34,154 nt of DNA from Candidatus Limnocylindrales bacterium (GCA_036520795.1 DATDJA010000089.1:1-34154); one strand, 5' to 3'; positions 2,450-23,978 are shown, counted from the first letter of the stretch. Notes: a model not told the origin generated them from the letters alone. Program-made: numbers and translations.

Positions 2450-2451
2450 GG

Positions 2452-2850: not shown

Positions 2851-2861
2851 GCGCGTTTCTC

Positions 2862-4523: not shown

Positions 4524-4531
4524 GGCGTGAT

Positions 4532-5269: not shown

Positions 5270-5278
5270 GGCCGGCCC

Positions 5279-5764: not shown

Positions 5765-5776
5765 CGGTCCTCCCTG

Positions 5777-8318: not shown

Positions 8319-8322
8319 CGAC

Positions 8323-8757: not shown

Positions 8758-8796
8758 GCGAGCCTCCGTGGCCTTCCGTTTGCGTGGTCATGACGG

Positions 8797-10299
8797 CTAC
8801 TCGGCGTCCGGCGAGCCAGAGAACTGGGCGATCCGGAACACCACGAACTCGGCCGGCTTCACGGGCGCGATGCCGATGTCGATGATCAGCTGGCCGGCAT
8901 CGCGGACCTCGGGCGGGTTGTTCTCCTCGTCGCACTTGACGAAGAACGCCTGGTCGGGCGTCGCGCCGAACAGCGCGCCGTCACGCCAGACCCGCAGCAG
9001 GAACGCGTTGATGGTCCGCTTCACGCGGCCCCACAGGCGCTGGTCGTTGGGCTCGAAGACCACCCACTGGGTGCCCTCGAAGATGGACTCCTCGATGTAG
9101 TTGAACAGGCGCCGCACGTTGAGGTAGCGCCAGGACGGATCGCTCGAGATCGTCCGCGCGCCCCACACCCGGATGCCGCGACCGGGGAAGGCCCGGATGC
9201 AGTTGATTCCGTTGGGGTTGAGCTGGTCGTGCTCGGCCTTGGTCAGGTTGAGCGCGAGGCTGATCGCGCCCCGAACGACCTCGTTGGCCGGCGCCTTGTG
9301 GACGCCGCGGGTGTCGTCGTTGCGGGCCCAGATCCCGGCCGTGTGGCCGGACGGCGGCACGAACTTCGCCTGGCCGGACAGGGGGTCGAAGACCTTGATC
9401 CAGGGCCAGTAGAGGGTCGCGTACTTGCTGTCGTAGCCGGCCTTGTCGACCCGCCACTCCTTGACCTGCTGGGCGTTGAGCCCTGGCGGCGCGTCGAGGA
9501 TGGCGACGCGATCGCCCATCAGCTCGCAGTGGGCGATCATCGCGAGCTGGACGGCCTGGAGGCCCTCCAGATCGATCATGCCCTGCTCGTACACGGCCAT
9601 CAGGTCGGGCACGGACAGCATGGTGACCTCGTCGACGGCCTCGAGTCCGGCGAAGCCGGTCCGGTCGGACGAGTTGCCGACGTAGTCGTCGGGGGTCAGC
9701 CGGGACGGGGCGGCCGCGCTGCCGCCGACGAGGGCGGTCGAGCCGGCGGCCGGCGCCAGGGCGCCGACGTCCTCGATGGTGATCGTCTTCGACTGCGCCT
9801 TGACGACCGTGGCGACGTTCTGCTTGCCGCGCGCCGTGCTGACGTTGTCGAAGGTCTCGACCTCCTTGCCGCCGCGCTTGACGACGAGCTTGAAGTTGCC
9901 TTCCTCGCCCGCGGGCTGGACGTCGATGCTCAGGTCATTCCCTTCCGGACCCGCCTCGAGGGCGGCGACGCGGAAGGCCGGCTTGGCCTTGTCCGTCGAG
10001 CTCGGCAGCTCGGCGCTCGCGGTCGGCGCAACGCCGTCGGCGCCGACGCGCACGACGTACGCGGCCCCGCCACCGTTCAGGAAGTAGCCGTAGATGGCAT
10101 GTGCGAGGTACGAGCCTTCGATGAAGTCGCCGAAGGTGGACGTGAACTGGTTCCAGTTCGTGACCAGGGTCGGCGCGTTGGCCGGCCCGCGAGCGGCCAG
10201 TCCGACGAACGCGGCGACGGCCGTTCCAACGCCCTCGATCGGACGGGACCCGGCCTCCACCTCCTCGACGTAGACGCCGGGCGAGAGATAGTTCGGCAT
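8797..10299 (-). CDS. Contractile tail sheath protein (Afp2/Pvc2-like)
   Basis: The track ORF runs to 10347, but the internal ATG at 10299 gives MPNYLSPGVYVEEVEAGSRPIEGVGTAVAAFVGLA, the canonical sheath N-terminus, preceded by GGAAAGGG. The C-terminal part contains INCIRAFPGRGIRVWGARTIS. Confidence 0.92.
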   Translation of the reverse strand: MPNYLSPGVYVEEVEAGSRPIEGVGTAVAAFVGLAARGPANAPTLVTNWNQFTSTFGDFIEGSYLAHAIYGYFLNGGGAAYVVRVGADGVAPTASAELPSSTDKAKPAFRVAALEAGPEGNDLSIDVQPAGEEGNFKLVVKRGGKEVETFDNVSTARGKQNVATVVKAQSKTITIEDVGALAPAAGSTALVGGSAAAPSRLTPDDYVGNSSDRTGFAGLEAVDEVTMLSVPDLMAVYEQGMIDLEGLQAVQLAMIAHCELMGDRVAILDAPPGLNAQQVKEWRVDKAGYDSKYATLYWPWIKVFDPLSGQAKFVPPSGHTAGIWARNDDTRGVHKAPANEVVRGAISLALNLTKAEHDQLNPNGINCIRAFPGRGIRVWGARTISSDPSWRYLNVRRLFNYIEESIFEGTQWVVFEPNDQRLWGRVKRTINAFLLRVWRDGALFGATPDQAFFVKCDEENNPPEVRDAGQLIIDIGIAPVKPAEFVVFRIAQFSGSPDAE

Positions 10300-10484
10300 G
10301 CGTTGCCCTTTCCGGATGCAGGGATCCCGATGACGTGACCGTCCCACCCAATCGAGGGCCGAACAAGGCCCGAGAGGGCGCGCGGGAGGGCGGGCGCCAT
10401 TGCCCGAAGGGGCGACCAGCGGTGCCCGGACGGATGCCCCGCGACCGACTGGCGCCGCGGCCCGGCTGAACCGACGATCGGTGG
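10300..10484. promoter_or_regulatory. Divergent intergenic region between the sheath operon and the cap/ATPase operon
   Basis: 185 bp is the only sizeable non-coding gap inside the CIS block, and it is flanked by divergent starts. I could not pick out clear -10/-35 elements. It contains a GGGATCCC palindrome at 10321..10328. Confidence 0.4.
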
Positions 10485-11210
10485 GTGATCTACGACGTCG
10501 ATCAGCTGCTCGAGAAGCTGGTCAAGCGCGACGCGCTCAACGGCTCGTCCGTCGACCTCGTGTTCGACGCGCCGACCAAGGACTGGGTCGCGCGCAGGAG
10601 CGGTCCCGCGGTCGACCTGTACCTGTACGACATCCGCGAGGACATCGCGCGCCGCGTGCCCGCGTGGGAGGACGTCCGCGACCCGGGCGGCACCGTGACC
10701 CGGCGCCGGCAGCCGCCGCGGCGCTTCCGCCTCGCCTATCTCGTCACGGCGTGGACGCAGCGGCCCGAGGATGAGCACCGCCTGCTGTCCTCGTTGCTCG
10801 CCTGCTTCCTGCGCAACCCGATGATCAAGCCCGAGGACCTCGACGACCCCCTGAACGAGGCCGACCTGCCGGTCTACCTCGAGGTCGCCCAGCCACCCAG
10901 CCAGGAGCGGTCGCTGGCCGACGTGTGGTCCGCCCTCGGCGGCGAGCTCAAGCCATCGCTGGACCTCGTGGTCGTGGCCCCGATGGTGGTCGACTCGAGC
11001 ACCTACTTCGGGCCGCCGATCCAGGAGGGACCGTCGATCGGCATCGCCTCGACCAACGGCGCCAGCGAGCGCCGCAGCGGCGGCCGCAAGGCCGAGGGAC
11101 CGCTCGAGATCGAGCCGTCCACCACCGAGCTGCTGCCGGCGAACGCGGGCGCGAAGGACGGCGGGGTCAGGCTCCGTGTCAGCGGCGTCCGGCGCCCGCC
11201 GCACCGATGA
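10485..11210 (+). CDS. DUF4255 / Pvc16-Afp16-like tail terminator (cap) protein
   Basis: 241 aa. VDLVFDAPTKDWVARRSGPAVDLYLYDIREDIARR...RRFRLAYLVTAWTQRPEDEHRLLSSLLACFL is the characteristic DUF4255 core. Confidence 0.88.
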   Translation: MIYDVDQLLEKLVKRDALNGSSVDLVFDAPTKDWVARRSGPAVDLYLYDIREDIARRVPAWEDVRDPGGTVTRRRQPPRRFRLAYLVTAWTQRPEDEHRLLSSLLACFLRNPMIKPEDLDDPLNEADLPVYLEVAQPPSQERSLADVWSALGGELKPSLDLVVVAPMVVDSSTYFGPPIQEGPSIGIASTNGASERRSGGRKAEGPLEIEPSTTELLPANAGAKDGGVRLRVSGVRRPPHR

Positions 11211-11217
11211 CCGGGCG

Positions 11218-13335
11218 ATGAGCCGGGCCGCGCCGGCGAGCGCGGAACCCGAGCTCGGCTCGCCGGACCCGTCCCTGCGCTACCTGCTCGGGCGGCTGTC
11301 CCTGGTCGAGCGCCTGGTGCGGTCCGCGGTGGATCGCCGCCGCGCCGTCGACGCGGATCCCGGCGACCGGTTCCGTGGCCTGTACATCTCGGACGAACAG
11401 GTCGACGGGCTGCTCGACCACGCCTCTGGACCGCTCGTCCCGCAGGTGGACGAGGCCGACCTCACCTTGCGCGCGGCCCTCGAGGCGCGCGCGTCCGAGG
11501 AGGAGCAGGCCGGCGCCGGGCTCCGGCTGCGCACGATGGCGCGCGCCTTCGATCTCGAGCCGATCGACGTCGAGCTCCTGCTGATCGCCCTCGCGCCGGA
11601 CCTCGACCCGCGCTTCGAGCGCCTGTACGGCTACCTCCACGACGACGTCTCGCGCCGGCGCGCGAGCGTCGGCCTGGCGATCGAGCTATGCAGCCCCGCG
11701 GCCGCCTCGGACGGCGCCCGGATCCGTGCGCGGCTGGGGCCCATGGCGCCGCTGCTGGCGGGACGGCTGCTGCTCATCGAGGACGTCGACCGCCCGTCGC
11801 TCACCCGCCCGCTGCGGGTCCCGGATCGGGTCACGGCCCACCTCCTGGGCGACGACAGCCCGGACCCCGTCGTGGAAGCGCTGCTCACCCCGTCGGTGGC
11901 CGTCGAGGTCGACGAGGTCGACGTCGTCGCGCACGGACTCAGGGCCGGCCTCGGGCTCGTGTACGTCCGGGAGCGCCCCGGCGCCTCCGGCCAGTCGCTT
12001 GGCCTCACGGCACTCGCGCGCCTCGGCCGTCCGGCGCTCGGGCTCGACCTCGGGCGGATGGCGGCGGGCGACGATCCGGCACTCATAGCTGTTGCGGCGT
12101 CCCGCGAGGCACGGCTGCGCGGCGCCGGGCTGGTCGTCGGGCCGGTCGAGCCGCTCGTGGAGCGCGGTGCGACGGCCGTCCGCGCGTTCGCGGAGCTGCC
12201 GGGTCCGGTGATCCTGGTCGGGGGGCGTGACTGGGACCCCGCCTGGTCGCGCGATCCGCCGCTCGTCGTGGACGCGCCGGTACCGGCGCTGGCGACCCGC
12301 CACGACCTGTGGGTCACCTCGCTCAACGGCGACCAGCCCGAGGGCTTCGACCCCGCCGCGGCGACGATCGCCTTCCGGCTCACGCCCGAGCAGATCGACC
12401 GGGCCGCCCAGGCCGCCCGCCACGCCGCGACGGCCGCCGACCGCACGATGACCGTGGCCGACGTCGCGGCCGGCGCGCGTGCCCAGAACGCCGCCGGCCT
12501 CGAGCGCCTCGCGCGACGGATCGAGCCCTCCGTTGCCTGGAAGGACCTCGTGCTGCCGGGGGTCGTCGAGGCCCAGCTGCGCGAGCTCACCGCCCGGGCC
12601 CGGCACCGCGACCGCGTGGTCGGGGAGTGGCGCATGGGCACGACCGGCGCGCGCGGGATCGGGATCACGGCCCTGTTCGCCGGCGACTCCGGGACCGGCA
12701 AGACGATGTCGGCCGAGGTCGTTGGCCACGACCTGGCGCTCGACGTCTACGTGATCGACCTCTCGACGGTCGTCGACAAGTACATCGGCGAGACCGAGAA
12801 GAACCTCGACCGGATCTTCACCGAGGCCGACCGAGTCAACGGGATCCTGCTGTTCGACGAGGCGGACGCGCTGTTCGGCAAGCGTTCGGAGGTCAAGGAC
12901 GCCCGCGACCGGTACGCGAACGTCGAGGTCGCCTACCTGCTCCAGCGGATGGAGCGCTTCGACGGCGTCGCGATCCTGACGACCAACCTGCGTTCCAACG
13001 TCGACGAGGCGTTCGTGCGGCGGCTCGACGCGATCATCGACTTCCCGATGCCCGAAGAGGAGCACCGGCGGCTGCTGTGGGAGCGCAACCTGGCGCCCGA
13101 GCTCCCCGTGCAGGACGGCATCGACCTCGACTTCCTCGCCCGCCGATTCAAGATCTCCGGCGGCAACATCCGCAACGTGTGCGTGACCGCCGCCTACCTG
13201 GCCGCCGCCGCCGACCGCCCGGTCAGCATGGCCGACCTCGTCCGCGCAACCGAGCGCGAGTACCGCAAGCTCGGCCGGCTCACCGTCGAGGCGGAGTTCG
13301 GCGAGTACTACGACCTGGTCACGGCCACCGAGTGA
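11218..13335 (+). CDS. AAA+ ATPase (Afp15/Pvc15-like CIS assembly/cargo-loading ATPase)
   Basis: Walker A is FAGDSGTGKTM. Walker B is ILLFDEADALFGKR. The second region of homology is AILTTNLRSNVDEAFVRRLD. The ATG at 11218 is chosen here, but the in-frame GTG at 11176, which overlaps the cap gene, is also possible. Confidence 0.92.
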   Translation: MSRAAPASAEPELGSPDPSLRYLLGRLSLVERLVRSAVDRRRAVDADPGDRFRGLYISDEQVDGLLDHASGPLVPQVDEADLTLRAALEARASEEEQAGAGLRLRTMARAFDLEPIDVELLLIALAPDLDPRFERLYGYLHDDVSRRRASVGLAIELCSPAAASDGARIRARLGPMAPLLAGRLLLIEDVDRPSLTRPLRVPDRVTAHLLGDDSPDPVVEALLTPSVAVEVDEVDVVAHGLRAGLGLVYVRERPGASGQSLGLTALARLGRPALGLDLGRMAAGDDPALIAVAASREARLRGAGLVVGPVEPLVERGATAVRAFAELPGPVILVGGRDWDPAWSRDPPLVVDAPVPALATRHDLWVTSLNGDQPEGFDPAAATIAFRLTPEQIDRAAQAARHAATAADRTMTVADVAAGARAQNAAGLERLARRIEPSVAWKDLVLPGVVEAQLRELTARARHRDRVVGEWRMGTTGARGIGITALFAGDSGTGKTMSAEVVGHDLALDVYVIDLSTVVDKYIGETEKNLDRIFTEADRVNGILLFDEADALFGKRSEVKDARDRYANVEVAYLLQRMERFDGVAILTTNLRSNVDEAFVRRLDAIIDFPMPEEEHRRLLWERNLAPELPVQDGIDLDFLARRFKISGGNIRNVCVTAAYLAAAADRPVSMADLVRATEREYRKLGRLTVEAEFGEYYDLVTATE

Positions 13336-13356: not shown

Positions 13357-14088
13357 ATGCTGCCGCCGCCCGCTGACCGATCCGCAACGCCCGACCCGCT
13401 CGATGAGGCGCTCGCCGCCCTCGACGTGCGCGCAAAGGCGCTCAGTGACGCCGCGAACGACCTGTTCAAGGCCGTCGCCCGGGTCGTCGCCGACGCGGTC
13501 CTGACCGCGGCCGCGCAAATCGTGGAGGCGCAGGCCGACCACAGCCTCGAGCTGGGCGCCAAGGGCCTCAGGCAGCTGCGGGCCGAGATCGACGGCTGGT
13601 GCGACCAGGTGGACGCGGCGACGCGCCGGCGCCTGATCGCCCCGGACGGTAGCCCGCCGATCTGGCCCCAGGCGTGGACGTTTCCGACCCCGCCGGTGAC
13701 CATCCCCGATGCCGACCGTGTTCCGTTCACCGGGGTCGGCCAGCCGCCCCCACCGCGGATCGACAACGCGATCCGGTCACTGGTCGCGGACGGCGTCGCC
13801 GCCCTCGTCGCGGCCGGGTACGACCTCGGCACCGACCCGGACTGGGAGACCGCGGCGGACGGCCGCGCGGTCCGCTTCGCCGGCCTCTATCGGCCGTCGC
13901 CGGTCCTGTTGAGCAGGGCGCGCGCATATTCGAACCGGCGCAGCGCCTACATCAGCGCGGTCGATCGCGTGCTGTGGTTGCGAGCGGTCGCCGCGGCCGA
14001 GGCGGCCGAGGCGGCGGCCAATCGTGACCGGGAGGCGAAGCGCGCGAAGGCGGCCCAGCACTGGGCGGAGGCCGGCTCCCGGGACTAG
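13357..14088 (+). CDS. Hypothetical protein (helical N- and C-terminal segments), last gene of the cap/ATPase arm
   Basis: 243 aa with strong G/C third-position bias in this frame. The overlapping minus-strand ORF 13308..13832 has shadow-frame composition. I recognised no motif. Confidence 0.6.
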   Translation: MLPPPADRSATPDPLDEALAALDVRAKALSDAANDLFKAVARVVADAVLTAAAQIVEAQADHSLELGAKGLRQLRAEIDGWCDQVDAATRRRLIAPDGSPPIWPQAWTFPTPPVTIPDADRVPFTGVGQPPPPRIDNAIRSLVADGVAALVAAGYDLGTDPDWETAADGRAVRFAGLYRPSPVLLSRARAYSNRRSAYISAVDRVLWLRAVAAAEAAEAAANRDREAKRAKAAQHWAEAGSRD

Positions 14089-14095: not shown

Positions 14096-14776
14096 TCAGG
14101 CTGGTGCGACGGCGGTCGCCGACATCGCGACCGGGATGAACACCCCGCCGTCGTCGACGATGAAGGTCACCGTGGCCGTAACCTTGTCGCCGGCCTCGAG
14201 CACCGGCAGCTCGGCCGTCGTCTCCGCGTCCCAGCCGGGGCCGGCCTCGACGCGCCCGAGATCGAACCCGGCCAGGGCATTGGCCGGGTTCTCCATCCCG
14301 CGCCAGACCGCGACCTTGGCACGCCCCGACGCGAGCTCGACTGGGAGCGTCCCGGTGCCGCGCTGGACCAGGCGGATCCGCGCGCGTCCGTCCGTCAGCC
14401 CGACCTCAAGCGCGATCGCCGCAACGGGCGCATCCGTGCGCGCATCGGCGATCCGCCGGCACGCCGCCAGCAGGTCGCCCCACGGCGGGTCGGCCTCGGC
14501 GCCCGCCTCGAAGACCGACCGTGCGCCGCCAACCTCGAGCTGCTCCACGCTGGCGTCGGCCGGCAGCGACCCGGGCCGCGGCGCGGCCGCCGACCCGACG
14601 GCCGACACCAGCCCCTCGAGCTCCGAGACCACCCCGGCCGGGAGCGACCCGCCGAACCGGCCGACGACGGGCGCGATCGACCGCCACAGCCGGAACGAGC
14701 CGTCGGCTTCGACGTCGAGGAGCTCGCGTTCGGGCGGCGGCATCGACGACAGCCGCCGCCACGTGACCAGCGTCAT
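14096..14776 (-). CDS. Protease-associated partner protein A (candidate inhibitor/immunity or loading adaptor), paralog of 19060..19788
   Basis: The internal ATG at 14776 forms an ATGA overlap with the stop of the upstream protease (14773..14776). The product begins MTLVTWRRLSSMPPPERELLDVEADGSFRLWRSIAPVVGRFGGSLPAGVVSELEGLV and aligns with partner B. The track ORF 14096..15325 has a spurious N-terminal extension. Confidence 0.75.
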   Translation of the reverse strand: MTLVTWRRLSSMPPPERELLDVEADGSFRLWRSIAPVVGRFGGSLPAGVVSELEGLVSAVGSAAAPRPGSLPADASVEQLEVGGARSVFEAGAEADPPWGDLLAACRRIADARTDAPVAAIALEVGLTDGRARIRLVQRGTGTLPVELASGRAKVAVWRGMENPANALAGFDLGRVEAGPGWDAETTAELPVLEAGDKVTATVTFIVDDGGVFIPVAMSATAVAPA

Positions 14777-16497
14777 CGTGGCCCCGACGTCCAGGTGAGG
14801 TCTGGGTAGGCGCCGCGGACGATTCGCACGAACTCCTCGAGGTGCCGGGGCTCGACGGCGTGGTCGTGCGGCGTCACGCCGCCCAGGACCTCCGGGTTGC
14901 CCATGATGCTCCGGCTGGCGTACGAGAACACCGACTGGATCGTCCACTTGCTGCCCTCGGGCAGCTTGTCCCGCATCGCCTGGACCAGCGACTTGGAGAA
15001 CCAGCCGTCGTACTTGTCGTTGTACGCGGTCTGGACCTCCTGTGCGAAGTCGCCCTGCTGGGGGACGCCGCCGACGATGAGGCCGACAGCGGTCAGGAGC
15101 GTCGTCGCCGTCGGGGCGCGCTGGGTCGCGTCGCGCAGGTACAGCGCATTGTGGAGATCGACGGCGATCTCGGCCGCCGTCTTGCCCGAGGCGTTGGCGG
15201 GGCCGGTGATGTCCTGGCCGGTGATCTTCTTGTAGTCGCCGTGGGTCCGCTGGTACTCGTCCTGGAGGCCGATGAGGTGGCCAAACTCGTGCGGCGCGGT
15301 CGTGGCGTCCATGAGCGGGAACCACATCCCGGCGTTCGCCCGGTCTTCCACCGACTGCGTGCCCGGGACCTTGTTGTCCTTCACCCGGATCGACTTCTCG
15401 GCGCCGGACCGGTTCTCGATCCCGAACCGGATCGGGATCTTGAGCCCGCCTGTCTCGACTGCGGCGAACTTGTTCCAGACCGTGTCGATCTGGGACTGCC
15501 AGGTGGCGATCGGCGCTGTCACGCCGGCGTCGGGCTTGAAATCGACCGGGACCCGGACGGTGAGCTCGCGCTGCTGGAGCACGTACTCGAACCGGCCCTG
15601 GACGGTGGTCGTCTCGCCCTCCGTCATGTGCTGGTCGATCTCGTTGGTGAAGGTCCCGGCCGCCTGGACCTGCAGCAGGTCGAGCGCCTTGCGCAGGTCG
15701 CTGCCGCTGAGCTCGTCCTGCAGGTCGCGGTCGAGGTGGTTGCCGGTCAGCGCCAGGTACTCCCGCTGGATGGCCAGGATCTCCTCGGGCTCACGACCCG
15801 TGAGCGCGTTGAAGATCTCGTCTTCCTCGGTGCCCCAGCCCGCCATCGCCTCCTTGAGGTGGACGGCGGTGACCTTCGCCCGCTCGGTCGCGGCGGTCGC
15901 CCGTTCGCCCTCGGTGAGGGTCGACTCGTCCGCGGTCGGTGCCATCGACTGGGTGACGCGCGCGAGCTCGGAGTCGTTGAGCTCGTCGCGCAGCTCCGCG
16001 TCGAGGTCCTTGTTGGCGACGCTCTTGTAGGCCTTGCGGATCTCGTCCATGTCGGCGGCCGTCCGGCCGGCGAGCGCGCCGTAGATCGCCTCTTCGTCGG
16101 TACCCCAGCCGCGCATCGCGTCGTCGAGGCGCCGCGCGATCTGGGTCGCCTGGTCCGGGGAGACTGCGCGCTGCACCGTGAGTCCCGGCCCGGCCGTCCC
16201 GCCGGCGGGCGTGCGCTGGAGGGCCTCGACGGTTGCCCGGTTGCCCGCGGTCGCCTGGAGGTCGACCACGCCGGCCGGATCGAGGACGCTCGCCTCGATG
16301 GTCGATGCGCTCGCCGCGAGGGGCCCCGCCGCCGGCTCCAGCGTGAGCCGGGGCCCGCCGGTCGCGGGGGCGGCGGCAGACGACCGGCCGGCCGGCGATC
16401 GCGTGGCGCGGGTCTGCATGCCGGCGATCGTATCGACGTGCCCCGGGATCGGGCTGCCCATTGGGGCAGACTTCCGGGCGGTCGTGGCCGAGGCCAT
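14773..16497 (-). CDS. Annexin-repeat / metzincin-like zinc metalloprotease fusion (CIS cargo candidate A)
   Basis: The N-terminal ~115 aa are low complexity and carry the DLQATAGNRATVEALQR motif. Two annexin repeats follow (GWGTDEEAIYGALAGRTAADMDEIRKAYKSVANKDLDAELRDELNDSEL and GWGTEEDEIFNALTGREPEEILAIQREYLALTGNHLDRDLQDELSGSDL). The zinc site is APHEFGHLIGLQDEY, with a candidate Met-turn at SRSIMG. No Sec signal peptide. Alternative starts at 16461 and 16419. Confidence 0.88.
   Translation of the reverse strand: MASATTARKSAPMGSPIPGHVDTIAGMQTRATRSPAGRSSAAAPATGGPRLTLEPAAGPLAASASTIEASVLDPAGVVDLQATAGNRATVEALQRTPAGGTAGPGLTVQRAVSPDQATQIARRLDDAMRGWGTDEEAIYGALAGRTAADMDEIRKAYKSVANKDLDAELRDELNDSELARVTQSMAPTADESTLTEGERATAATERAKVTAVHLKEAMAGWGTEEDEIFNALTGREPEEILAIQREYLALTGNHLDRDLQDELSGSDLRKALDLLQVQAAGTFTNEIDQHMTEGETTTVQGRFEYVLQQRELTVRVPVDFKPDAGVTAPIATWQSQIDTVWNKFAAVETGGLKIPIRFGIENRSGAEKSIRVKDNKVPGTQSVEDRANAGMWFPLMDATTAPHEFGHLIGLQDEYQRTHGDYKKITGQDITGPANASGKTAAEIAVDLHNALYLRDATQRAPTATTLLTAVGLIVGGVPQQGDFAQEVQTAYNDKYDGWFSKSLVQAMRDKLPEGSKWTIQSVFSYASRSIMGNPEVLGGVTPHDHAVEPRHLEEFVRIVRGAYPDLTWTSGPR
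15253..15294. repeat. 42-nt segment, inverted near-copy of 18476..18517 (zinc-site codons)
   Basis: The reverse complement ccgcacgagtttggccacctcatcggcctccaggacgagtac matches 18476..18517 at 39 of 42 positions. All 3 differences are synonymous third positions. Confidence 0.9.
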
Positions 16498-16521
16498 TGC
16501 GGAGGCTGCCGCGGTGGCCGA

Positions 16522-16541
16522 TCCTGTAGTCAGCTACAGGA
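16522..16541. promoter_or_regulatory. 8-bp perfect inverted repeat (TCCTGTAG-tcag-CTACAGGA) overlapping the Shine-Dalgarno of the DUF4157 gene
   Basis: Read directly: 16522..16529 is the reverse complement of 16534..16541. AGGAGG at 16538..16543 lies 6 nt before ATG 16550. The repeat sits in the ~52-bp gap between the two divergent cargo operons. Confidence 0.5.
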
Positions 16542-16549
16542 GGACCGCC

Positions 16550-17251
16550 ATGCGCGATTTCGAGTTGGAAGCCGCCCGCGGCGTCCCGATTGCACCGGAG
16601 CGTGACCTGCCCACGCCGGCGACGGCCGAGTCAGCCCCGGTCGCCCCGGGTCGCTCGCCCGCGCTCGACGCGGCGACGCTGATGCACCTGCAGCGGACCG
16701 CCGGCAATGCCGGGGTCGTGCAGATGCTGGCGGGCGAGGATGAGCAGGTTTCGCCGGTCCACGACGTAGTCGGGTCGGGCGGCGGCTCGGCGCTCGACGC
16801 CGGGACCCAGTCGACGATGGAGTCGGCGTTCGGCCAGTCGTTCGACAACGTCCGCGTCCACACCGACGACCAGGCGTCGCAGTCGGCGGAGTCCGTCGGC
16901 GCGAACGCCTATACGGTCGGCTCGGACATCGTGTTCAAGAGCGGCCAGTTCGATCCCGGCAGTGCATCGGGCCAGAAGACCATCGCGCATGAGCTGGCCC
17001 ACGTCGTCCAGCAGTCGCGTGGGCCGGTCGACGGTTCGGAGGCGGCCGGCGGCATCCGCGTCAGCGACCCGTCGGACCGCTTCGAGCGCGCCGCCGACGC
17101 GACCGCGGAGCAGGTGATGGCCTCGGTCTCGTCCTCGCAGCCGTCCGCGTCGGATGCCGGCGCGCTGCAGCGGGAGGAAGACCCGCTGTCCGCCCCCGCC
17201 GCCGTCCAGCGCGAGGCGCTGCCCGAGGAAGAGGAAGAGCCGGGGAGCTGA
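16550..17251 (+). CDS. DUF4157 (eCIS-associated HExxH) domain protein
   Basis: ATG at 16550 with a perfect AGGAGG SD. The N-terminal motif is MHLQRTAGNAGVVQMLAG. The DUF4157 core is LDAGTQSTMESAFGQSFDNVRVHTDDQASQSAESVGANAYTVGSDIVFKSGQFDPGSASGQKTIAHELAHVVQQ. The tail is acidic (EEEEEPGS). The track ORF start at 16178 lies inside the opposite-strand gene. Confidence 0.88.
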   Translation: MRDFELEAARGVPIAPERDLPTPATAESAPVAPGRSPALDAATLMHLQRTAGNAGVVQMLAGEDEQVSPVHDVVGSGGGSALDAGTQSTMESAFGQSFDNVRVHTDDQASQSAESVGANAYTVGSDIVFKSGQFDPGSASGQKTIAHELAHVVQQSRGPVDGSEAAGGIRVSDPSDRFERAADATAEQVMASVSSSQPSASDAGALQREEDPLSAPAAVQREALPEEEEEPGS

Positions 17252-17254
17252 TCG

Positions 17255-19060
17255 ATGGCGGGCCCGGGCGCGCAACGCGTCCAGCACGGAGACGATCGCC
17301 AACCGGGGGAACGCGGCGGCACCGCCGACCTGGCCCCCGGTCGCGACGACGCGGTCGACCTCGGCGCGATCGGGGCGGGCCCGCGCCGGCTGCCCGTGCA
17401 CGCCGCCTCATCGATGGTCGTCATGGCGCTCCAGCGCAGCGCGGGCAACGCCGCCGTGCAATCGCTGCTCGGGCCTCGCCCCTCGCTCCGCCTCCAGCGC
17501 GACGACGCGCCCGGGGCGACGCCCGTGGCCCCCGGAGCCTCGGGCGCCGGGGCCGCCGCGGCGCCGGCCCCACCCGCGAGGACCGCCCTCAACCCCGGCG
17601 ACTCGAGCGTCGAGGTGGGGGAGCTGCAGCAGGCGCTGAACGCGCTCGGCGCGGCGGTGCCGCCGCTGCGGATCACGGCGCTGTACGGCCCCGAGACCAC
17701 GGCCGCGGTGACCGCGTTCCAGGCGTCGCACCCGCCGCTCATCCCGGACGGCATCTGCGGCCTGCCGACGTGGGCGAAGGTGGACGAGCTCGCCCCGCGC
17801 GTCTCGCGCCAGGGACGCAGCGTCGTCGAAGGCCCGGCCGAGGGCGAGCCGCGGGGGACGCCGCTCGGGGGGACCATCCACCCGACGGTGCGCCGCACGT
17901 CGACCGGGCCGGCGGTCGAGGAGCTGCAGCAGAAGCTCAACACGATCCCGTCCGACCAGGTACCGACGCTGCTCGACGTTGACGGCAAGTTCGGTCGGAT
18001 CACCCGGCAGGCCGTGATCGAGTTCCAGCAGTCCCGAACGCCGCCGCTCGTCGCCGACGGCGTCGTGGGGCCGTTGACGTGGTCCGCGCTCGACGCGGTG
18101 GCAGGCCCGGTGACCGTCGGCCGCGAGTCGTTCGACTGGGAGCAGCGAGCCGAGGGCACGATCACCGGGGGCCCGTCGCGGTTCACGTGGCGCCTCCTCG
18201 ACGACAAGCTCCAGGTGACCGTGAACCTGCGCTTCACGGGGTCGCCCAGCCACCCGCGCGTCGCCCAGTGGCGTACCGACATCACGAGCGTGTGGAACAC
18301 GTTCCGGTTCGAGAACCCCGACGACCCCGGGCACCCGCTGGACCTCGAGTTCGTCGTCGGGACCGGGACGCCCGCCGACGCGTCCGTGGCGGTCGTCGTG
18401 ACCCCGGCCGGGACGACCCCCGGGCGCTCGGACTCGGCGAACTGGCACACGGGCGACACGGACCCGGGGCTCGCGCCGCACGAGTTCGGACACCTCATCG
18501 GGCTCCAGGACGAGTACAACCGGGCACCGGAGCAGTACGCGGCGGTGACCGGCGAGCAGGCGCCGATCGGCCGGGTCGATGCCCCCCTCGACGCGGCCGG
18601 CAACCCCGTGGCCCCCGAGGTCATTGCGGCGGAGATGCGCACGGCGGTCACGGGGGCGGCCGCCGGCCGCGGCGCGGCGGCGCGGGCGGTCGTCACGAAG
18701 TACAGCCTCCGCCAGGGCGCCTTCAGCCAGCGCATCGCCCTCGCCTACGAGACCGCGAACGCGGGCAGCATGCTGCGCGAGGACTTCGGTCCGGCCGGCT
18801 TCGTGATCGTCAACGACCCGGCCGGGACCATGGGCAACGACGTCGCGGCGCGGATTCCGGGCCAGTTCGACACCGCCGGCAACGAGGCGGTGGCGGTCGA
18901 GCCGTTCCTGTACAGCAACCGCGGCATCATGGGCACCATGGCCAGCCTGAACTCGCCGATCAGCGCACATGACCACCCCGTGGCCGAGCGGCACGTGCGC
19001 CACTTCCGGGACATCGTCCGGCGGAACCGGCCCGGCACGTGGCGGACGGTCCGGCGCTGA
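17255..19060 (+). CDS. Peptidoglycan-binding-domain / metzincin-like zinc metalloprotease fusion (CIS cargo candidate B)
   Basis: The N-terminal motif is MALQRSAGNAAVQSLLG. Two PG_binding_1-like domains are present (VEVGELQQALNALG...YGPETTAAVTAFQAS...DGICGLPTWAKV and PAVEELQQKLN...VDGKFGRITRQAVIEFQQS...DGVVGPLTWSAL). The zinc site is APHEFGHLIGLQDEY, with a candidate Met-turn at NRGIMG. The C-terminal ~290 aa are paralogous to protease A. Confidence 0.88.
   Translation: MAGPGAQRVQHGDDRQPGERGGTADLAPGRDDAVDLGAIGAGPRRLPVHAASSMVVMALQRSAGNAAVQSLLGPRPSLRLQRDDAPGATPVAPGASGAGAAAAPAPPARTALNPGDSSVEVGELQQALNALGAAVPPLRITALYGPETTAAVTAFQASHPPLIPDGICGLPTWAKVDELAPRVSRQGRSVVEGPAEGEPRGTPLGGTIHPTVRRTSTGPAVEELQQKLNTIPSDQVPTLLDVDGKFGRITRQAVIEFQQSRTPPLVADGVVGPLTWSALDAVAGPVTVGRESFDWEQRAEGTITGGPSRFTWRLLDDKLQVTVNLRFTGSPSHPRVAQWRTDITSVWNTFRFENPDDPGHPLDLEFVVGTGTPADASVAVVVTPAGTTPGRSDSANWHTGDTDPGLAPHEFGHLIGLQDEYNRAPEQYAAVTGEQAPIGRVDAPLDAAGNPVAPEVIAAEMRTAVTGAAAGRGAAARAVVTKYSLRQGAFSQRIALAYETANAGSMLREDFGPAGFVIVNDPAGTMGNDVAARIPGQFDTAGNEAVAVEPFLYSNRGIMGTMASLNSPISAHDHPVAERHVRHFRDIVRRNRPGTWRTVRR
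18476..18517. repeat. 42-nt segment, inverted near-copy of 15253..15294
   Basis: ccgcacgagttcggacacctcatcgggctccaggacgagtac matches the reverse complement of 15253..15294 at 39 of 42 positions. Confidence 0.9.
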
Positions 19061-19788
19061 TGGGCGAACCGAGCGAGGCGCTGGTCCGGTACCGGCGGAC
19101 CGGCGGGCGACCCCCGAGCGACGACGAGGCCCTCGACGTCGCGGACGACGGGTCGTTCACCGCGCGCCGGACGGTCGCCGGCGCGCGGGTCGGGACCTTC
19201 GCGGGCCGGCTGGCGTCCGGGCGCGTCGAGGCGCTCCGCGAGGCCGTCGACGCGGTTCGCGACGCGCATGACGTCCAGGTCGCGACGCCGCTCGACGGCG
19301 CGACCGAGGTGCTCGAGGCGGGCGGGCACACGACACGGACGGGCTCCAACGAACGCCCGACGGACCCGTGGAAGGCGCTCGTCGAGACCGTGCGTTCCAT
19401 GCTCGACGAGGACGCCGTCGCCGATCCGCTGGCGGCGATCGAGCTCACGGCGACGTCCCGCGAGGCCGCCCTCACTCAGGCCGGGCCGGCACCGGTCGAG
19501 ATCGACCTCGGGTCGGTGACGCTGCGCGTGGTCCGGATCGACACCGCAGGGCTCGTGCTCGGCCGGTGGCAGGCGCGGCTCCAGGACGCGGGCGACGAGG
19601 ACACCGCCGAGCCGCCCCCTGCGTGGACATCGGCCGCCGCCGGCTGGCGAGCGACCCTCCCGTTCTCGCACGGGCTCGAGCTCGCGGACGGCGACTGGCT
19701 CCAGGTGTGGGTCTTCGCGACGATCCGGGATGCCGCCGGCGACGGCGGCGAGCGCGCCGCCCGCCTGTTCGTCGCCGTTCCCGGATGA
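19060..19788 (+). CDS. Protease-associated partner protein B (candidate inhibitor/immunity or loading adaptor), paralog of 14096..14776
   Basis: ATG 19060 overlaps the protease TGA by 1 nt (TGATG). The product begins MGEPSEALVRYRRTGGRPPSDDEALDVADDGSFTARRTVAGARVGTFAGRLASGRVEALREAV. Shared blocks with partner A are LV..RR...PP...E.LDV..DGSF, VG.F.G.L, E.LE.GG and DPW..L...P.AAI.L. Confidence 0.75.
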   Translation: MGEPSEALVRYRRTGGRPPSDDEALDVADDGSFTARRTVAGARVGTFAGRLASGRVEALREAVDAVRDAHDVQVATPLDGATEVLEAGGHTTRTGSNERPTDPWKALVETVRSMLDEDAVADPLAAIELTATSREAALTQAGPAPVEIDLGSVTLRVVRIDTAGLVLGRWQARLQDAGDEDTAEPPPAWTSAAAGWRATLPFSHGLELADGDWLQVWVFATIRDAAGDGGERAARLFVAVPG

Positions 19789-19798: not shown

Positions 19799-20446
19799 CT
19801 AGATCAGGCCCTCGCGGATCGCGTACGCGACGGCGTGGGCGCGGTTGCGCAGCTCCAGCCGCGACGTCACGTCGTGGATGATGTTCTTCACGGTCCGCTC
19901 GGAGTAGAACAGGCGCGCCCCGACCTCGGCCGTGTCGTAGCCGTCGGCGAGCAGCCGGAGCACGGCCGCCTCGCGCTCGGTGAGGCCGGAGAACGTCAGC
20001 CCGCGCGGTGACAGGACCTGGCGCTGCAGTTGCCCGACCTGGCGCAACAGGCGGCCCAGGAGGTCCGGCGGCAGCGTGCCCTCGCCCGCCGCGGCCGACC
20101 GGATCGCGGCCGCCAGGTTGCCCGCGGTCGCCTCGCTCCGGCGGATGACGCCCGTCACGCCGGCCTCCGCGGCCGCGAGGAGCGAGCGATCGTCCACGCG
20201 CGACACGAGCAGCACGATCCGCCGCACGCCGCGGCCCCGCAGCGCGCGCATCTCCGCCAGCACCTCGGGCGCCACCTCCTCGGCGACGACCAGCGCCACG
20301 GAGTCCTCGGGCGTCGCGTCGTCGGCCACCACCACGAAGCCCTGCGCGCGCCGCAACTGGCTCGCGATGCCGGCCCTCGAGAGCGGATCGGACGCCCGGA
20401 CGGCGACCGGGATCGGGGCCTTGATGGGCATCAGTTCGGCGACCAT
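19799..20446 (-). CDS. LuxR/NarL-family response regulator with degenerate receiver domain
   Basis: The C-terminal HTH is LTEREAAVLRLLADGYDTAEVGARLFYSERTVKNIIHDVTSRLELRNRAHAVAYA. The receiver-like N-terminus lacks the acidic pair (VAVRASDP) and has VVAEEVAP where DxxMP is expected. The ATG at 20446 is preceded by GGGGAG with a 7-nt spacer. The track ORF start at 20548 is a TTG. Confidence 0.85.
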   Translation of the reverse strand: MVAELMPIKAPIPVAVRASDPLSRAGIASQLRRAQGFVVVADDATPEDSVALVVAEEVAPEVLAEMRALRGRGVRRIVLLVSRVDDRSLLAAAEAGVTGVIRRSEATAGNLAAAIRSAAAGEGTLPPDLLGRLLRQVGQLQRQVLSPRGLTFSGLTEREAAVLRLLADGYDTAEVGARLFYSERTVKNIIHDVTSRLELRNRAHAVAYAIREGLI

Positions 20447-20576
20447 TCGTGCACTCCCCATGGGTCCCCACCAACGGCAACCAGGGAAGGAGGCGGCAGC
20501 CGGAAGACCTCGGCGGACCCTACCGCGCGTGGGTGTCCGGCCAGTCAACGTGCACTTAACGGGCAGCCCGACATGC

Positions 20577-20613: not shown

Positions 20614-21909
20614 ATGGGGTCCTGTTCCGGCGGCGATTGCGCGGCTACACTCACGCCCGTGGGTGCATCCGTCACGCTGGTCACACCTGCCCTGGCCGTC
20701 GAGCCGGGACAGGAAACCACCGCCGAGGTGCGGGTCCGGAATACGGGCAGCGTGGTCGACGAGTTCTCGCTTGACGTGATCGGCGACTCCGCCGGCTGGG
20801 CGGTCGCGGAGCCCGCGGTCATCTCCCTGTTCCCCGGCGCCGAAGCCACCGCCAAGCTCGTCTTCCGGCCGCCGCGCGCCGCTTCGACGCCCGGCGGCCT
20901 CGTCCCGTACGGGATCCGGGCCCGCTCGAAGGAGGACCCGGCGGGGTCCGCGGTGGAAGAGGGCTCGATCAACGTCGGGACCTTCCTCGACCCCTTCGCC
21001 GAGCTCGCGCCGCGCACCTCGCGCGGCTCGCGCACCGGAACCCACGACCTCGCGATCGACAACCGCGGCAACGCGCGGCTGAACGCCGAGGTCGAGGGCA
21101 CCGACGCCGATCGGAACCTGAAGTTCGACATCAACCCGCCGGGTGTCGTGGTCGAGCCCGGCATGGCCGGCTTCGCGAAGGTGCGGGTCAGCCCGGTCAA
21201 GCGGTTCTGGCGCGGCCAGCCCAAGACTCGCCCATTCCAGCTGTTCGTGAAGCCCGAGGGCGGCGTCCCGATCACGATCGACGGCACGCTGCTCCAGGAG
21301 TCGGTGCTCCCGTCGTGGTTCCTCAAGGCCCTGCTGGCGCTGATCGTGCTGCTGATCGCCCTCGTGCTCATCTGGCTGCTGCTGCTCAAGCCGACGATCC
21401 AGACCGCGGCCAGCGACGCCGTGGCCTCGCCGCTCGCGAGCCTCAAGGCGGACGTCAACGACGCGCTTGCCGACGCCGGCCTGGCGACGATGGGCCCCGA
21501 GCCGAGCGCCGGCGACGGCGGACCCACGCCGCCCGCCCCGACGGCCCCCGCACCCAGCGACGGCAGCGGCGGTCCGCCGTCGCCGACGAGCACGCCGGGC
21601 GTCGTGATCCCCGGGCTCGGCAACCCCGTCGACGGGCGCCTCGACAAGGCCAATCCGAGCATGACCGCCGCCGGCACCCTGTTCGTGACGGACCTCGTGT
21701 TCTCCAACCCGAACGGGGCGACGGGCAGCGTCGACATCAAGCGCGACGACACGTCCCTGCTGCACCTGCGGCTCGAGAACTTCCGCGACTACGACCTCCA
21801 CTTCGTGACCCCGATCGTGATCGCGCCGGGGCAGTCGCTCGTCCTGAGCCCCGCCTGTGAGACCGCCTGCGATCCGGCCGTCTTCTACTCGGGGTACCTG
21901 CGGCCCTGA
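20614..21909 (+). CDS. Bitopic membrane protein: two N-terminal beta-sandwich-like domains, one TM helix, Pro-rich linker, C-terminal extracytoplasmic domain
   Basis: 431 aa. LAVEPGQETTAEVRVRNTGSVVDEFSLDVIGDSAGWAVAEP and HDLAIDNRGNARLNAEVEG...VVVEPGMAGFAKVRV are CARDB/NEW3-like strands. The TM helix is WFLKALLALIVLLIALVLIWLLLL. The in-frame GTG at 20659 is an alternative start. Confidence 0.8.
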   Translation: MGSCSGGDCAATLTPVGASVTLVTPALAVEPGQETTAEVRVRNTGSVVDEFSLDVIGDSAGWAVAEPAVISLFPGAEATAKLVFRPPRAASTPGGLVPYGIRARSKEDPAGSAVEEGSINVGTFLDPFAELAPRTSRGSRTGTHDLAIDNRGNARLNAEVEGTDADRNLKFDINPPGVVVEPGMAGFAKVRVSPVKRFWRGQPKTRPFQLFVKPEGGVPITIDGTLLQESVLPSWFLKALLALIVLLIALVLIWLLLLKPTIQTAASDAVASPLASLKADVNDALADAGLATMGPEPSAGDGGPTPPAPTAPAPSDGSGGPPSPTSTPGVVIPGLGNPVDGRLDKANPSMTAAGTLFVTDLVFSNPNGATGSVDIKRDDTSLLHLRLENFRDYDLHFVTPIVIAPGQSLVLSPACETACDPAVFYSGYLRP

Positions 21910-21914: not shown

Positions 21915-23972
21915 ATGGCGCGCCGCGTTGCCGCCGTCGCGCTGCTGCTGGCGCTGGGATCGGCCGTGCCGGCCACGCCCGCGGTTCGTGCCGTCGCCGG
22001 CGTGCAGGCGCCGCCCGCGCCGCGACCGGTGGTCTCGGCGCCCGTGCCGACGCCGCCCGGACGCACGCTCCTGGCCTCGAAGAGTGCCGGGGGCGGTTTT
22101 CCGAACGCGCTGTCCTGGACGCCGTCGATCTCGGCCAACGGCCGCTATGTCGCCTACGCGTCGACCGCGACCAACATCGTGCGGTCCGGCCCCGGCGCGC
22201 CCGCCGCCGGCGTGTTCCTGCGGGACATGAGCAATGGGCGGACCATCCGGCTCCCGATCCCGGCCAGCCTCACCCGCGGCGGCCGGGCGACCGAGCCCTC
22301 GATCTCGGCCGACGGCTCCGTCGTCGCGTTCACCTACCAGGAGCCGGCGACGGACGACGGCTCGGTCGTGCTCGCCTGGGACCGGTCGACCGGGCGCTCC
22401 CAGGTGGTCTCGCGGACCAACGCGGGCGGGATCGTCCAGGGCAGCAGTCAGCCATCGGTGTCGGCGACCGGGCGCTTCGTCGCCTACACGTCCACGCGGC
22501 AGAACCTCGTCGGCGGGCCGGGCGGCGACCCGGACGTGTTCCGCTACGACCGGGATCGGCAACGGACCGTGGTCGTGTCGGTTGGGCAGGTCTCCCCGCT
22601 CGATCCGGGCCGCGACACTGCACCGTCGATCTCGGCCAACGGCAACGTCGTGGCGTTCCAGTCGGACGGTGGGGACCAGCTGATCCCCGCCAACACCGGG
22701 CCCGGCGACCAGGTCTTCGTGCGCGACATCGCGGCCGAGCGGACGAGGCAGGTCAGCGTCGCCCTCGACGGCCCACCGAATGGGCCATCGGTCACGCCAT
22801 CGATCTCGGCCGACGGCAACGTGATCGCCTTCACCTCGGCCGCGTCTGACCTCGCGTCGATCGACGACAACGTCGTGCCCGATGTGTTCGTGCGGGACAT
22901 GCGTGCGGGCGCGACCACGATGGTCTCGGTCACGCCCGACGGCCGCGCCCCGACCGCCCGCAGCGAGGGGCCGTCGATCTCGGCGGACGGCCGGATGGTC
23001 GCCTTCCAGTCCGAGGCCCTCGACATCATCGGCCTCGGCGCGAGCGTCGCGACCGCGCACCTGGCCGCCGCGGCGGCGAAGCGGACCGAGGTGTTCGAAC
23101 GGGACCTCGTCGCGAACGAGACGGTGCTCGTGTCGGTCGGCCGGAACGGCCGGCCGGGCGGCCTGGTGAGCGCGCAGCCCGTCGTCGGCGGGAACGGCCG
23201 GTTCGTCGCCTTCGCCTCGACATCGCCCCGCCTCGTGCCCCGGGACACCCTGGGCGTGACCGACGTGTTCCTGCGCGACATGCCGCCCGTGCCGCGCCTC
23301 AACCCGTCCTCGATCGACCTCGGCACGCTCGACGTCGGCATCGCGTCGGCGCCGGGGGCAGCGATCCTCGGCAACAGCGGCTGGGGCCCATTGAGCGTCG
23401 GTCGCGCCGCGGTCACCGGCCCGGAGCGGCTCGACTTCGACGTTGTCGCCGATGCCTGCGACGGCCGGGTGCTCCATCGCACGGAGAAATGCACGGTGAC
23501 CGTGACCTTCACCCCGAGGGGCGGCGGCCGGCGGGACGCGACGCTCGCGATCCCCGACGGGTACACAGGTTCGCCCCGGACCGCCCGCCTGCGCGGCTCC
23601 GGGGTCAGGGCGCCGGTCAACCGGCCGCGGTTCGAGATCAGCCCCGAGGTCGGGGCGCCGGGGCTGGTCGTGGTCGCGACCGGATCCGACTTCCCGCCCA
23701 ACAGCCTGGTCCGCCTGTCATGGAGCCGCGGGACGACACCGACGATGCCGGCCGTACGAGCCGGCGCGGACGGCCGGTTCACCGCGCAGGTGCTGGTGTT
23801 CCACAATGACCTGACGGGCCCGCGCGACCTGCGTGCGGACCCCGTCACACCGGGGGCGTTTCCCCGGGCGACGGCACGGCTCCTGGTGACACGCCCGTCG
23901 GTCACGCCGCCGGGATTCCTCATGATCCGCCGCTTCATCGACCTCCCGCTCGTGCTCCTGATGCGAGGCTGA
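21915..23972 (+). CDS. Secreted seven-repeat PD40/TolB-like beta-propeller protein with C-terminal Ig-like domains
   Basis: The signal peptide is MARRVAAVALLLALGSAVPATPA. Seven repeats fit S[IV]SA[DNT]G..VA[FY].S (SISANGRYVAYAS, SISADGSVVAFTY, SVSATGRFVAYTS, SISANGNVVAFQS, SISADGNVIAFTS, SISADGRMVAFQS, VVGGNGRFVAFAS), several followed by DVF.RD. Two beta-sandwich-like segments follow. Confidence 0.85.
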   Translation: MARRVAAVALLLALGSAVPATPAVRAVAGVQAPPAPRPVVSAPVPTPPGRTLLASKSAGGGFPNALSWTPSISANGRYVAYASTATNIVRSGPGAPAAGVFLRDMSNGRTIRLPIPASLTRGGRATEPSISADGSVVAFTYQEPATDDGSVVLAWDRSTGRSQVVSRTNAGGIVQGSSQPSVSATGRFVAYTSTRQNLVGGPGGDPDVFRYDRDRQRTVVVSVGQVSPLDPGRDTAPSISANGNVVAFQSDGGDQLIPANTGPGDQVFVRDIAAERTRQVSVALDGPPNGPSVTPSISADGNVIAFTSAASDLASIDDNVVPDVFVRDMRAGATTMVSVTPDGRAPTARSEGPSISADGRMVAFQSEALDIIGLGASVATAHLAAAAAKRTEVFERDLVANETVLVSVGRNGRPGGLVSAQPVVGGNGRFVAFASTSPRLVPRDTLGVTDVFLRDMPPVPRLNPSSIDLGTLDVGIASAPGAAILGNSGWGPLSVGRAAVTGPERLDFDVVADACDGRVLHRTEKCTVTVTFTPRGGGRRDATLAIPDGYTGSPRTARLRGSGVRAPVNRPRFEISPEVGAPGLVVVATGSDFPPNSLVRLSWSRGTTPTMPAVRAGADGRFTAQVLVFHNDLTGPRDLRADPVTPGAFPRATARLLVTRPSVTPPGFLMIRRFIDLPLVLLMRG

Positions 23973-23978
23973 CGCCGA

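Follow-up and report, generated by a model that had tools for sequence, protein, structure and literature searches.

The DNA analyzed here is a complete contig of 34,154 bp, called the window below, from a 'Candidatus Limnocylindrales bacterium' metagenome-assembled genome (MAG) of the phylum Chloroflexota. The window encodes an extracellular contractile injection system (eCIS) and, past the Afp15-like ATPase gene of that system, two modules that each consist of a gene for a predicted zinc metalloprotease and a gene for a smaller partner protein. We conclude that the partner is probably the cognate inhibitor, or immunity protein, of the protease with which it is encoded. This role is favored by a partner gene position strictly downstream of the protease gene with overlap of start and stop codons, by the co-diversification of the two proteins, by the faster evolution of the partner, by the lack in the partner of a tag found in the candidate cargo proteins and by the existence of lipoprotein forms. 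An earlier reading of this DNA alone (the original prediction) had proposed a cassette of protease and immunity genes. The comparative pattern favors the inhibitor or immunity role given there to the partner, whereas inhibition itself is something we infer rather than something observed.

The two modules lie in mirror orientation. Partner A and protease A are transcribed leftward (module A, 14096-16497, minus strand) and are followed by a rightward series of a stand-alone DUF4157 gene, protease B and partner B (module B, 17255-19788, plus strand). The divergent ATG codons of protease A and the DUF4157 gene are separated by 52 bp, an AGGAGG ribosome-binding site precedes the DUF4157 ATG and protease B starts 3 nucleotides past the DUF4157 stop codon. 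Each partner gene is joined to its protease gene. The partner A start overlaps the protease A stop in the sequence ATGA (14773-14776) and the partner B start is joined to the protease B stop in the sequence TGATG (19058-19062). Checks of the open reading frames (ORFs) and junctions reproduced the predicted layout, its coordinates, the intergenic spacing and both start/stop overlaps, and Pfam searches agreed that the accessory domains differ, annexin repeats being found in protease A and PG_binding_1 repeats in protease B. The DUF4157 gene product matches PF13699 ('eCIS core domain') with E=1.1e-31 (109.3 bits versus a cut-off of 22) and contains the string AHELAHVVQQ.

How generally the pairing is kept was seen in other genomes, where L-numbers denote related genomic loci and P-numbers the homologous proteins compared. 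Only five loci were found by a partner-based locus search, and a protease motif was used instead. With one genome per species the motif search gave 39 loci, to which earlier protein look-ups were added, for a total of 43 pairs (the two of the window plus 41 others) in Chloroflexota and Actinomycetota. Of the 39 loci, only five have no partner ORF directly downstream of the protease: two are cut off by a contig edge (L033 and L044) and three are remote relatives (L046, L047 and L049). The junctions are mostly ATGA or GTGA overlaps, and these were seen in Chloroflexia MAGs, Acidimicrobiia, Ilumatobacter, Actinoplanes, Paractinoplanes and Agromyces. The distance matrices of proteases and partners are strongly correlated (r=0.886, a value reached by 0 of 2000 Mantel permutations), with A-type proteases paired with A-type partners and B-type proteases with B-type partners. 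The partner was the more divergent member in 94% of 903 comparisons and evolves about 1.5-2 times faster; for example, a protease distance of 0.13 corresponds to a partner distance of 0.27. In gene position, conservation of the pairing and co-variation the modules agree with the logic of polymorphic toxin-immunity pairs (Zhang et al. 2012, PMC3482391). Within ±10 kb of most actinobacterial pairs, and of those of L002 and L008, there is no eCIS gene, and the majority of the pairs outside the window are not in eCIS loci, a fact overlooked in the original prediction. As the pairs persist where no eCIS gene lies within that distance, the role of the partner seems tied to the protease rather than to the injection machine.

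Three records have protease and partner in one frame with no intervening stop codon: L038:8295-10538 (Fodinicola feengrottensis HKI 0501), P0033 and P0170. We set these fusions aside as evidence of interaction because P0070, from another assembly of the same Fodinicola species, is unfused, and the fusions may be frameshift artifacts in DNA of high GC content. In a Chloroflexota MAG locus, L005, a pair with a PG_binding_1-protease is preceded by an ORF of 1023 residues and by a gene of the Imm32 immunity family (3136-3408) that overlaps the start of the protease gene. This arrangement suggests a polymorphic-toxin island, and no eCIS genes are present on its 7.4-kb contig.

The partners match no Pfam or NCBIfam family. 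An exhaustive profile search of 1.84 billion proteins gave a family of 303 cluster representatives, and nearly all of the 150 representatives listed are stand-alone proteins of 215-245 residues; the long forms carry no additional Pfam domains. The AlphaFold2 (AF2) model of partner A is of high quality, with a predicted local distance difference test score (pLDDT) of 94.9 and a predicted template modeling (TM) score of 0.88, and consists of an N-domain of the alpha/beta type (residues 1-115) followed by a beta-sandwich C-domain (residues 117-223). The top 50 Foldseek matches in the PDB are all generic beta-sandwiches that align to the C-domain. The original prediction had remarked on a loose resemblance of the partner N-termini to emfourin-type inhibitors. 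The searches lent it no support: 19 partner sequences have no Pfam family in common at E<=10, a PDB sequence profile search with the partner returned 0 matches at E<=10 and no inhibitor fold is among the Foldseek matches listed.

Five of 168 partner representatives (P0120, P0139, P0152, P0174 and P0223) begin with a lipoprotein signal peptide (e.g., …AVGVGQSVAAC…) followed by a linker rich in Ser, Thr and Pro. In L050 a lipoprotein partner (7869-8813) is encoded downstream of a PG_binding_1-protease (6418-7755) and beside DUF4157, Pvc16, sheath and tube genes. In this pair the usual overlap is replaced by a gap of 114-246 nucleotides. Export as a lipoprotein would be expected of an immunity protein that guards the envelope but not of a loading adaptor acting in the cytoplasm.

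The proteases share a C-terminal domain of about 290 residues, and the zinc-metallopeptidase active-site motif claimed for it is present in both enzymes. The motif, HEFGHLIGLQD, is of the HExxHxxGxx(H/D) type and is invariant in alignments of 26 and 15 homologues, as are the individual residues H118, E119, H122, G125, D128, E129, Y130, M247, H259, H261, R266 and H267. The residues of HEFGHLIGLQDEY are likewise invariant across homologues. The third zinc ligand is probably the Asp residue, as in snapalysin. The invariant Met falls within the sequence S-I/L-M-G about 120 residues past the zinc motif, from which it is separated by a helical insert of about 115 residues, and this conserved SIMG is a possible Met-turn.

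Relatives of the domain were sought by several means. No Pfam or NCBIfam peptidase family (M6, M7, M10, M43, M64 or ATLF) scored above threshold, and the sub-threshold matches, M64 (E=0.17), M6 (E=0.22) and the TIGR03296 M6 domain (16 bits versus a cut-off of 110.8), lie over the HExxH helix. The best match of a PDB profile search was snapalysin, at HETGHVLGLPDHY, with E=0.05 over only about 20 residues of the active-site helix. The other weak PDB matches, again confined to the active-site motif, were the M64 IgA protease, matrix metalloproteinase (MMP)-11, myroilysin and MMP-20, all of which are metzincins. The AF2 model of the protease A catalytic domain has a pLDDT of 81.8, which falls below 50 in the segment around the conserved Met, and in its N-terminal sub-domain the elements beta-alpha-beta-beta-beta precede the HExxH helix, an order compatible with metzincins. 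Our reading of these sequence features is that the domain is a very divergent metzincin-like metallopeptidase of predicted activity. An anthrax-lethal-factor-type toxin was rejected, as there was no Pfam ATLF match and lethal factor did not appear in the PDB sequence or fold searches. The helical insert (window 14920-15200, minus strand; residues about 150-240 of protease A) gave weak Foldseek matches to annexin repeats, with root-mean-square deviations of 2.3-3.1 Å over 86-97 columns, and the catalytic domain may hold a degenerate annexin-like repeat besides the two clear N-terminal repeats.

A feature absent from the original prediction is a short N-terminal tag common to all three candidate cargo proteins. 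The pattern Q..AGN has exactly three matches in the six-frame translation of the window, one each in protease A (LQATAGNRATV), the DUF4157 protein (LQRTAGNAGVV) and protease B (LQRSAGNAAVQ). The tags lie 50-90 residues into these proteins, the N-terminal 100 or so residues of which match no domain. The partners lack the tag and begin directly with a folded beta-strand. The looser motif [LIMV]Q(R)xAGNxAV has 60 matches in 1.46 million ORF residues from 48 loci. Protease and DUF4157 ORFs account for 44 of the 60, with 33 in protease ORFs (plus the two of the window) and nine in DUF4157 ORFs (plus those of the window and L050), and most of the remainder are in adjoining unannotated ORFs. Further motif-bearing ORFs are L016:9743-11182, L016:11201-12709, L012:14566-16089, L050:1-1299, L050:1730-5302 and L003:8545-8898. 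The tag is also found in protease homologues encoded far from eCIS genes, the Actinoplanes group having the variant LLQAGGNAA. In L046 (8096-10732) the tag, DUF4157 and the protease domain occupy a single open frame of 879 codons that adjoins an Afp15-like AAA ATPase gene.

No paper containing LQRxAGN motif strings was found in the literature searched. Loading in AlgoCIS depends on a disordered N-terminal sequence that the cargos of one system have in common and does not need DUF4157, and unfolding of the cargo has been proposed as the task of the AAA+ ATPase (bioRxiv 10.64898/2026.05.27.728243). Given this precedent and the sharing of the tag, we infer that the LQ(R/A)xAGNxAV motif is part of a system-specific loading sequence, which by analogy would be recognized through the adjacent Afp15-like AAA+ ATPase. 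The motif may be a general cargo-loading tag.

These elements can be assembled into a working scheme. The candidate cargos would be the annexin-bearing protease A, the stand-alone DUF4157 protein and the PG_binding_1-bearing protease B. On synthesis in the cytoplasm each protease would at once be in a 1:1 complex with the partner whose translation is coupled to its own. The partner would block protease activity, and the tagged N-terminus would direct the protease to the Afp15-like ATPase. The ATPase would then unfold the protease, strip off the partner and thread the protease into the tube, with the partner left behind. In the target the annexin or PG_binding_1 domains would act as accessory or localizing modules. 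As the MMP pro-domain also has the PG_binding_1 fold, peptidoglycan targeting is only one possible meaning of these repeats.

Several considerations weigh against an inhibitor paired with an active protease. Many toxins of Photorhabdus virulence cassettes (PVC) and eCIS have no immunity gene (PMC3482391, PMC8213781) and the prior expectation of one is not overwhelming. The partner fold resembles no known protease inhibitor or immunity protein in Foldseek searches of the PDB and BFVD, which gave generic immunoglobulin (Ig)-like sandwiches with query-normalized TM scores of at most about 0.30. In the PDB Foldseek search the catalytic-domain model had no match at E<=1e-3, the best metzincin being profragilysin-3 (E=0.13, TM 0.18), and this result, together with the low pLDDT of the presumed Met-turn, leaves the motifs as the basis on which proteolytic activity is predicted. 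Moreover, the DUF4157-fused relative in L046 has no partner, and co-diversification would also follow from tight linkage alone.

The partner could instead be a dedicated chaperone or loading adaptor, comparable to the Eag, DUF4123 and DUF2169 proteins of type VI secretion systems (T6SS), that maintains the protease in solution or brings it to the tube or the Afp15-like ATPase without inhibiting it. Strict 1:1 genetic coupling, translational overlap and co-diversification are consistent with an adaptor, the partner has no similarity to known inhibitors and DUF4157-type accessory proteins have been proposed as eCIS toxin chaperones (PMC11297309). We nevertheless consider an adaptor unlikely, since the pairs are kept far from eCIS genes and some partners are lipoproteins, which are exported from the cytoplasm where loading takes place. 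T6SS adaptor genes are usually found upstream of the effector gene, not downstream as here. No adaptor family of Pfam matches the partners, including DUF4123, DUF1795/Eag and DUF2169, and in AlgoCIS, for which no cargo-specific adaptor is described, the N-terminal sequence and the ATPase were identified as the determinants of loading (bioRxiv 10.64898/2026.05.27.728243).

Another role of low probability is that of a functional subunit or activator, co-delivered with the protease or required by it, that might recognize substrates through the Ig-like sandwich. The C-terminal beta-sandwich is a typical binding module, the overlaps imply stoichiometric co-translation and the in-frame fusions of L038, P0033 and P0170 would fit a subunit if they are real rather than frameshift artifacts. 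A co-delivered partner would, however, be without the N-terminal cargo tag, its rate of evolution relative to the enzyme is more typical of an antagonist and in the lipoprotein variants the partner is kept apart from a cytoplasmic protease that bears the tag. Inhibition or immunity remains our preferred role for the partner.

The paralogy of the two modules, also part of the original prediction, was confirmed by pairwise alignments. The alignment of the two proteases covers some 300 C-terminal residues at 27% identity (E=6e-18) and includes the segments FSYASRSIMGN/FLYSNRGIMGT and HDHAVEPRH/HDHPVAERH, and the partners are 37% identical over their first 123 residues (E=6e-14). The original prediction went on to propose that a single ancestral protease-inhibitor pair was duplicated and inverted at this site and that the copies were retargeted by annexin and PG-binding domains. 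True paralogs in inverted orientation are indeed present, and N-terminal shuffling is clear, with L004 and L020 having annexin plus PG_binding_1 on a B-type catalytic domain. The inverted 39/42-nucleotide identity (15253-15294 versus 18476-18517) that accompanied the proposal also exists, both segments encoding PHEFGHLIGLQDEY. Given the codon usage of this contig, however, 38.1±1.5 identical bases would be expected for that peptide, so the match is uninformative as to duplication and gives no evidence that one was recent.

The wider comparisons make duplication and inversion at this locus very improbable. In the distance comparison modules A and B are only 32% (protease) and 29% (partner) identical, whereas identity with the L006 modules is 92% for window A (against L006-A) and 85% for window B (against L006-B). 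The nearest relatives of partner B are the partners of B-type proteases in L006, L036, L020 and L004. There are three main clades: the annexin-fused A clade of Chloroflexota and Acidimicrobiia, in which annexin fusions predominate, the B clade of Chloroflexota and a PG_binding_1-fused clade of Actinoplanes, Agromyces and related genera. The A and B clades each extend over several orders or phyla, and closer orthologs of the window modules occur elsewhere, including in another phylum. The mirror layout, read as leftward DUF4157, protease B and partner B, then rightward protease A and partner A followed by the AAA gene, recurs in L006 and L020. L004 is a variant in which the B-position protease carries annexin plus PG_binding_1. 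Module A alone is present in L001, L003 and L009, and in one MAG the two are split, with module A at the eCIS locus (L009) and a module of the B type on a separate contig (L040). Recent duplication or gene conversion was rejected by the codon-bias expectation and the distance comparisons. The modules thus appear to be ancient paralogous cassettes, each mobile as a unit, that came together in one locus and whose N-terminal domains are shuffled.

The location claimed for the modules held up: both sit immediately past the Afp15-like ATPase gene in the cargo region (Table 1). That ATPase is presumed to be the cargo-loading ATPase of the eCIS and to mark the start of the cargo region; its gene is kept beside a module in L001, L003, L006, L009, L010, L020 and L036. 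The GerE/LuxR-type regulator at the other boundary holds the same position in related loci. DUF4157 is an established marker of eCIS toxins, which are encoded next to it (PMC8213781, PMC11297309), and eCIS-associated toxins have been defined by a gene position no more than about 10 genes from the eCIS core genes and no more than two genes from a DUF4157 gene (Geller 2021, PMC8213781; Danov 2024, PMC11297309). Both proteases of the window flank the DUF4157 gene and are 2-5 genes from the AAA ATPase gene.

Table 1 Features of the mirror locus and of the adjoining injection-system genes (window coordinates).
Feature	Position	Strand	Remarks
CIS structural genes	503-10347	-	Baseplate J, VgrG-like spike, CIS_tube/LysM, two gp19-type tube proteins, sheath
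Pvc16_N gene	10485-11210	+	Diverges from the CIS structural genes
Afp15-like AAA+ ATPase (WHD + AAA)	11176..13335	+	Pfam WHD 9.8e-29, AAA 9.5e-23
Partner A	14096..14776	-	226 residues; candidate cognate inhibitor/immunity protein of protease A
Protease A, whole gene	14773..16497	-	574 residues if the ATG at 16497 is the start; a downstream Met is possibly the true start
Protease A catalytic domain	14773..15642	-	About 289 residues; divergent metzincin-like; HEFGHLIGLQDEY, SIMG motif, HDHxVxxRH
Protease A active-site segment PHEFGHLIGLQDEY	15253..15294	-	39/42 nucleotides as in 18476-18517
Protease A, two annexin repeats (accessory)	15673..16149	-	Pfam PF00191 E=9.5e-25
Protease A N-terminal tag VVDLQATAGNRATVEAL	16213..16269	-	One of three Q..AGN matches in the window
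DUF4157/eCIS_core protein, stand-alone	16550..17251	+	233 residues; HELAH motif; tag LMHLQRTAGNAGVVQML at about 16679-16735
Protease B	17255..19060	+	601 residues; tag VMALQRSAGNAAVQSLL at about 17420-17476; catalytic domain 18140-19060
Protease B, two PG_binding_1 repeats	about 17591-18091	+	Pfam E=2.9e-24
Protease B active-site segment PHEFGHLIGLQDEY	18476..18517	+	Matches inverted 15253..15294
Partner B	19060..19788	+	242 residues; paralog of partner A; candidate cognate inhibitor/immunity protein of protease B
GerE/LuxR-type regulator	19799..20548	-	Pfam GerE 8.4e-13; far boundary of the cargo region

Several neighboring genes deserve mention. The contig is about 73% GC, and within its most GC-rich part (0.75-0.80) lies an ORF of 651 residues between the two tube genes (5777-7732, minus strand) that has no Pfam match and occupies the usual place of a tape-measure or Afp14-like length determinant. 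Partner A and the AAA ATPase are separated by an ORF of 243 residues without a family match (13357-14088, plus strand), which is found in L001/L007 and is not at that position in L003, L006, L009 or L020. Past the GerE regulator are three plus-strand genes (20614-21909, 21915-23972 and 23979-25040) that are conserved with the eCIS in L001, L003, L004, L006 and L009 and partly in L018 and L020. The first encodes a protein of 431 residues with an Ig-like N-domain and a hydrophobic, transmembrane-like stretch, and the other two (21915-25040) encode a PD40 beta-propeller protein and a double-zinc-ribbon plus NADase_transloc/F5_F8-type-C protein. The 431-residue protein agrees with what has been published on Sco4256, which is associated with the particles of the Streptomyces class IId CIS. 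If the window system is of class IId, firing inside cells or between sister cells may occur, which would make a self-protecting inhibitor more necessary.

The locus is a further example of a known arrangement, the eCIS cargo cassette of toxin plus immunity gene, and not a new kind of system, and the general picture of how such systems work would be unchanged even if our reading is correct. It brings to light two unannotated protein families, the catalytic domain and the partner, and a cargo tag that may prove useful. For most eCIS toxins no immunity gene is recognized, which raises the question of how their producers tolerate them (PMC8213781, PMC3482391). The candidate protease toxins described here come with a strictly coupled partner in about 300 sequence clusters, and the pair would be open to genetic work in cultured strains of Actinoplanes, Paractinoplanes, Agromyces and Fodinicola. 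A fuller proposal, which we advance with less assurance than the partner assignment itself, is that the partners may constitute an undescribed metallopeptidase inhibitor or immunity family (alpha/beta N-domain plus Ig-like C-domain, in cytoplasmic and lipoprotein forms) directed at undescribed snapalysin-like metzincin toxins, with LQRxAGNxAV as the loading signal of Chloroflexota and Actinomycetota CIS. If so, the metallopeptidases would gain a new family and the inhibitors a new fold. The tag would then offer a simple means of locating CIS cargo throughout a genome, and the motif alone could suffice to recognize cargo genes distant from the machine.

The window modules resemble the eCIS-associated toxins already described (PMC8213781, PMC11297309) in their position past the eCIS core genes and the Afp15-like ATPase, the adjacent DUF4157 gene, an N-terminus without a domain and a gene in the immunity position. 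They differ in that neither the toxin domain nor the partner falls into an annotated family, most of the pairs lie outside eCIS loci and both toxicity and protection are predicted. In PVC-type toxins an annexin accessory domain precedes a metallopeptidase toxin domain (Tox-ALFMetallopeptidase; Zhang et al. 2012, PMC3482391). Protease A has the same order of N-terminal leader, annexin repeats and C-terminal HExxH peptidase, and phage-tail-like delivery, predicted here from the genes, is common to both. In contrast to those toxins, however, the window protease has no ATLF match, DUF4157 is encoded in trans rather than fused, and the immunity family listed for them, Imm-SuFu, was not found, the partner being another protein.

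Snapalysin (MEROPS M7) and other metzincins share with the window enzymes the HExxHxxGLxD(E/H)Y motif (HETGHVLGLPDHY in snapalysin), a downstream Met and the topology of the N-terminal sub-domain. The likeness extends over about 20 residues (E=0.05), and the window enzymes differ in the insert of about 115 residues, an extra invariant HDHxVxxRH segment and the lack of a significant fold match. The T6SS metallopeptidase effector VgrG2b reportedly acts on the cell envelope and is said to have a cognate immunity gene (Wood et al. 2019). VgrG2b would thus also be a metallopeptidase toxin of a contractile machine that is accompanied by an immunity gene, and its metallopeptidase motifs are said to be DUF4157-like, whereas its delivery is by fusion to the T6SS spike, its immunity family is unrelated and partners of the window type are mostly cytoplasmic.

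Finally, in the protealysin-emfourin operon of Serratia proteamaculans, as cited in PMC9505478, an intracellular metalloprotease gene is likewise followed directly by a gene in the inhibitor position, and emfourin is reported there to bind protealysin 1:1 at the active-site region. The two systems have no sequence relationship and protealysin is thermolysin-like (M4), whereas the window proteases are metzincin-like. Emfourin is also a smaller, single-domain protein, in contrast to the two-domain partners of 226-242 residues. Despite these differences, by analogy of function the protealysin-emfourin operon would be the closest counterpart of the protease-partner pair.

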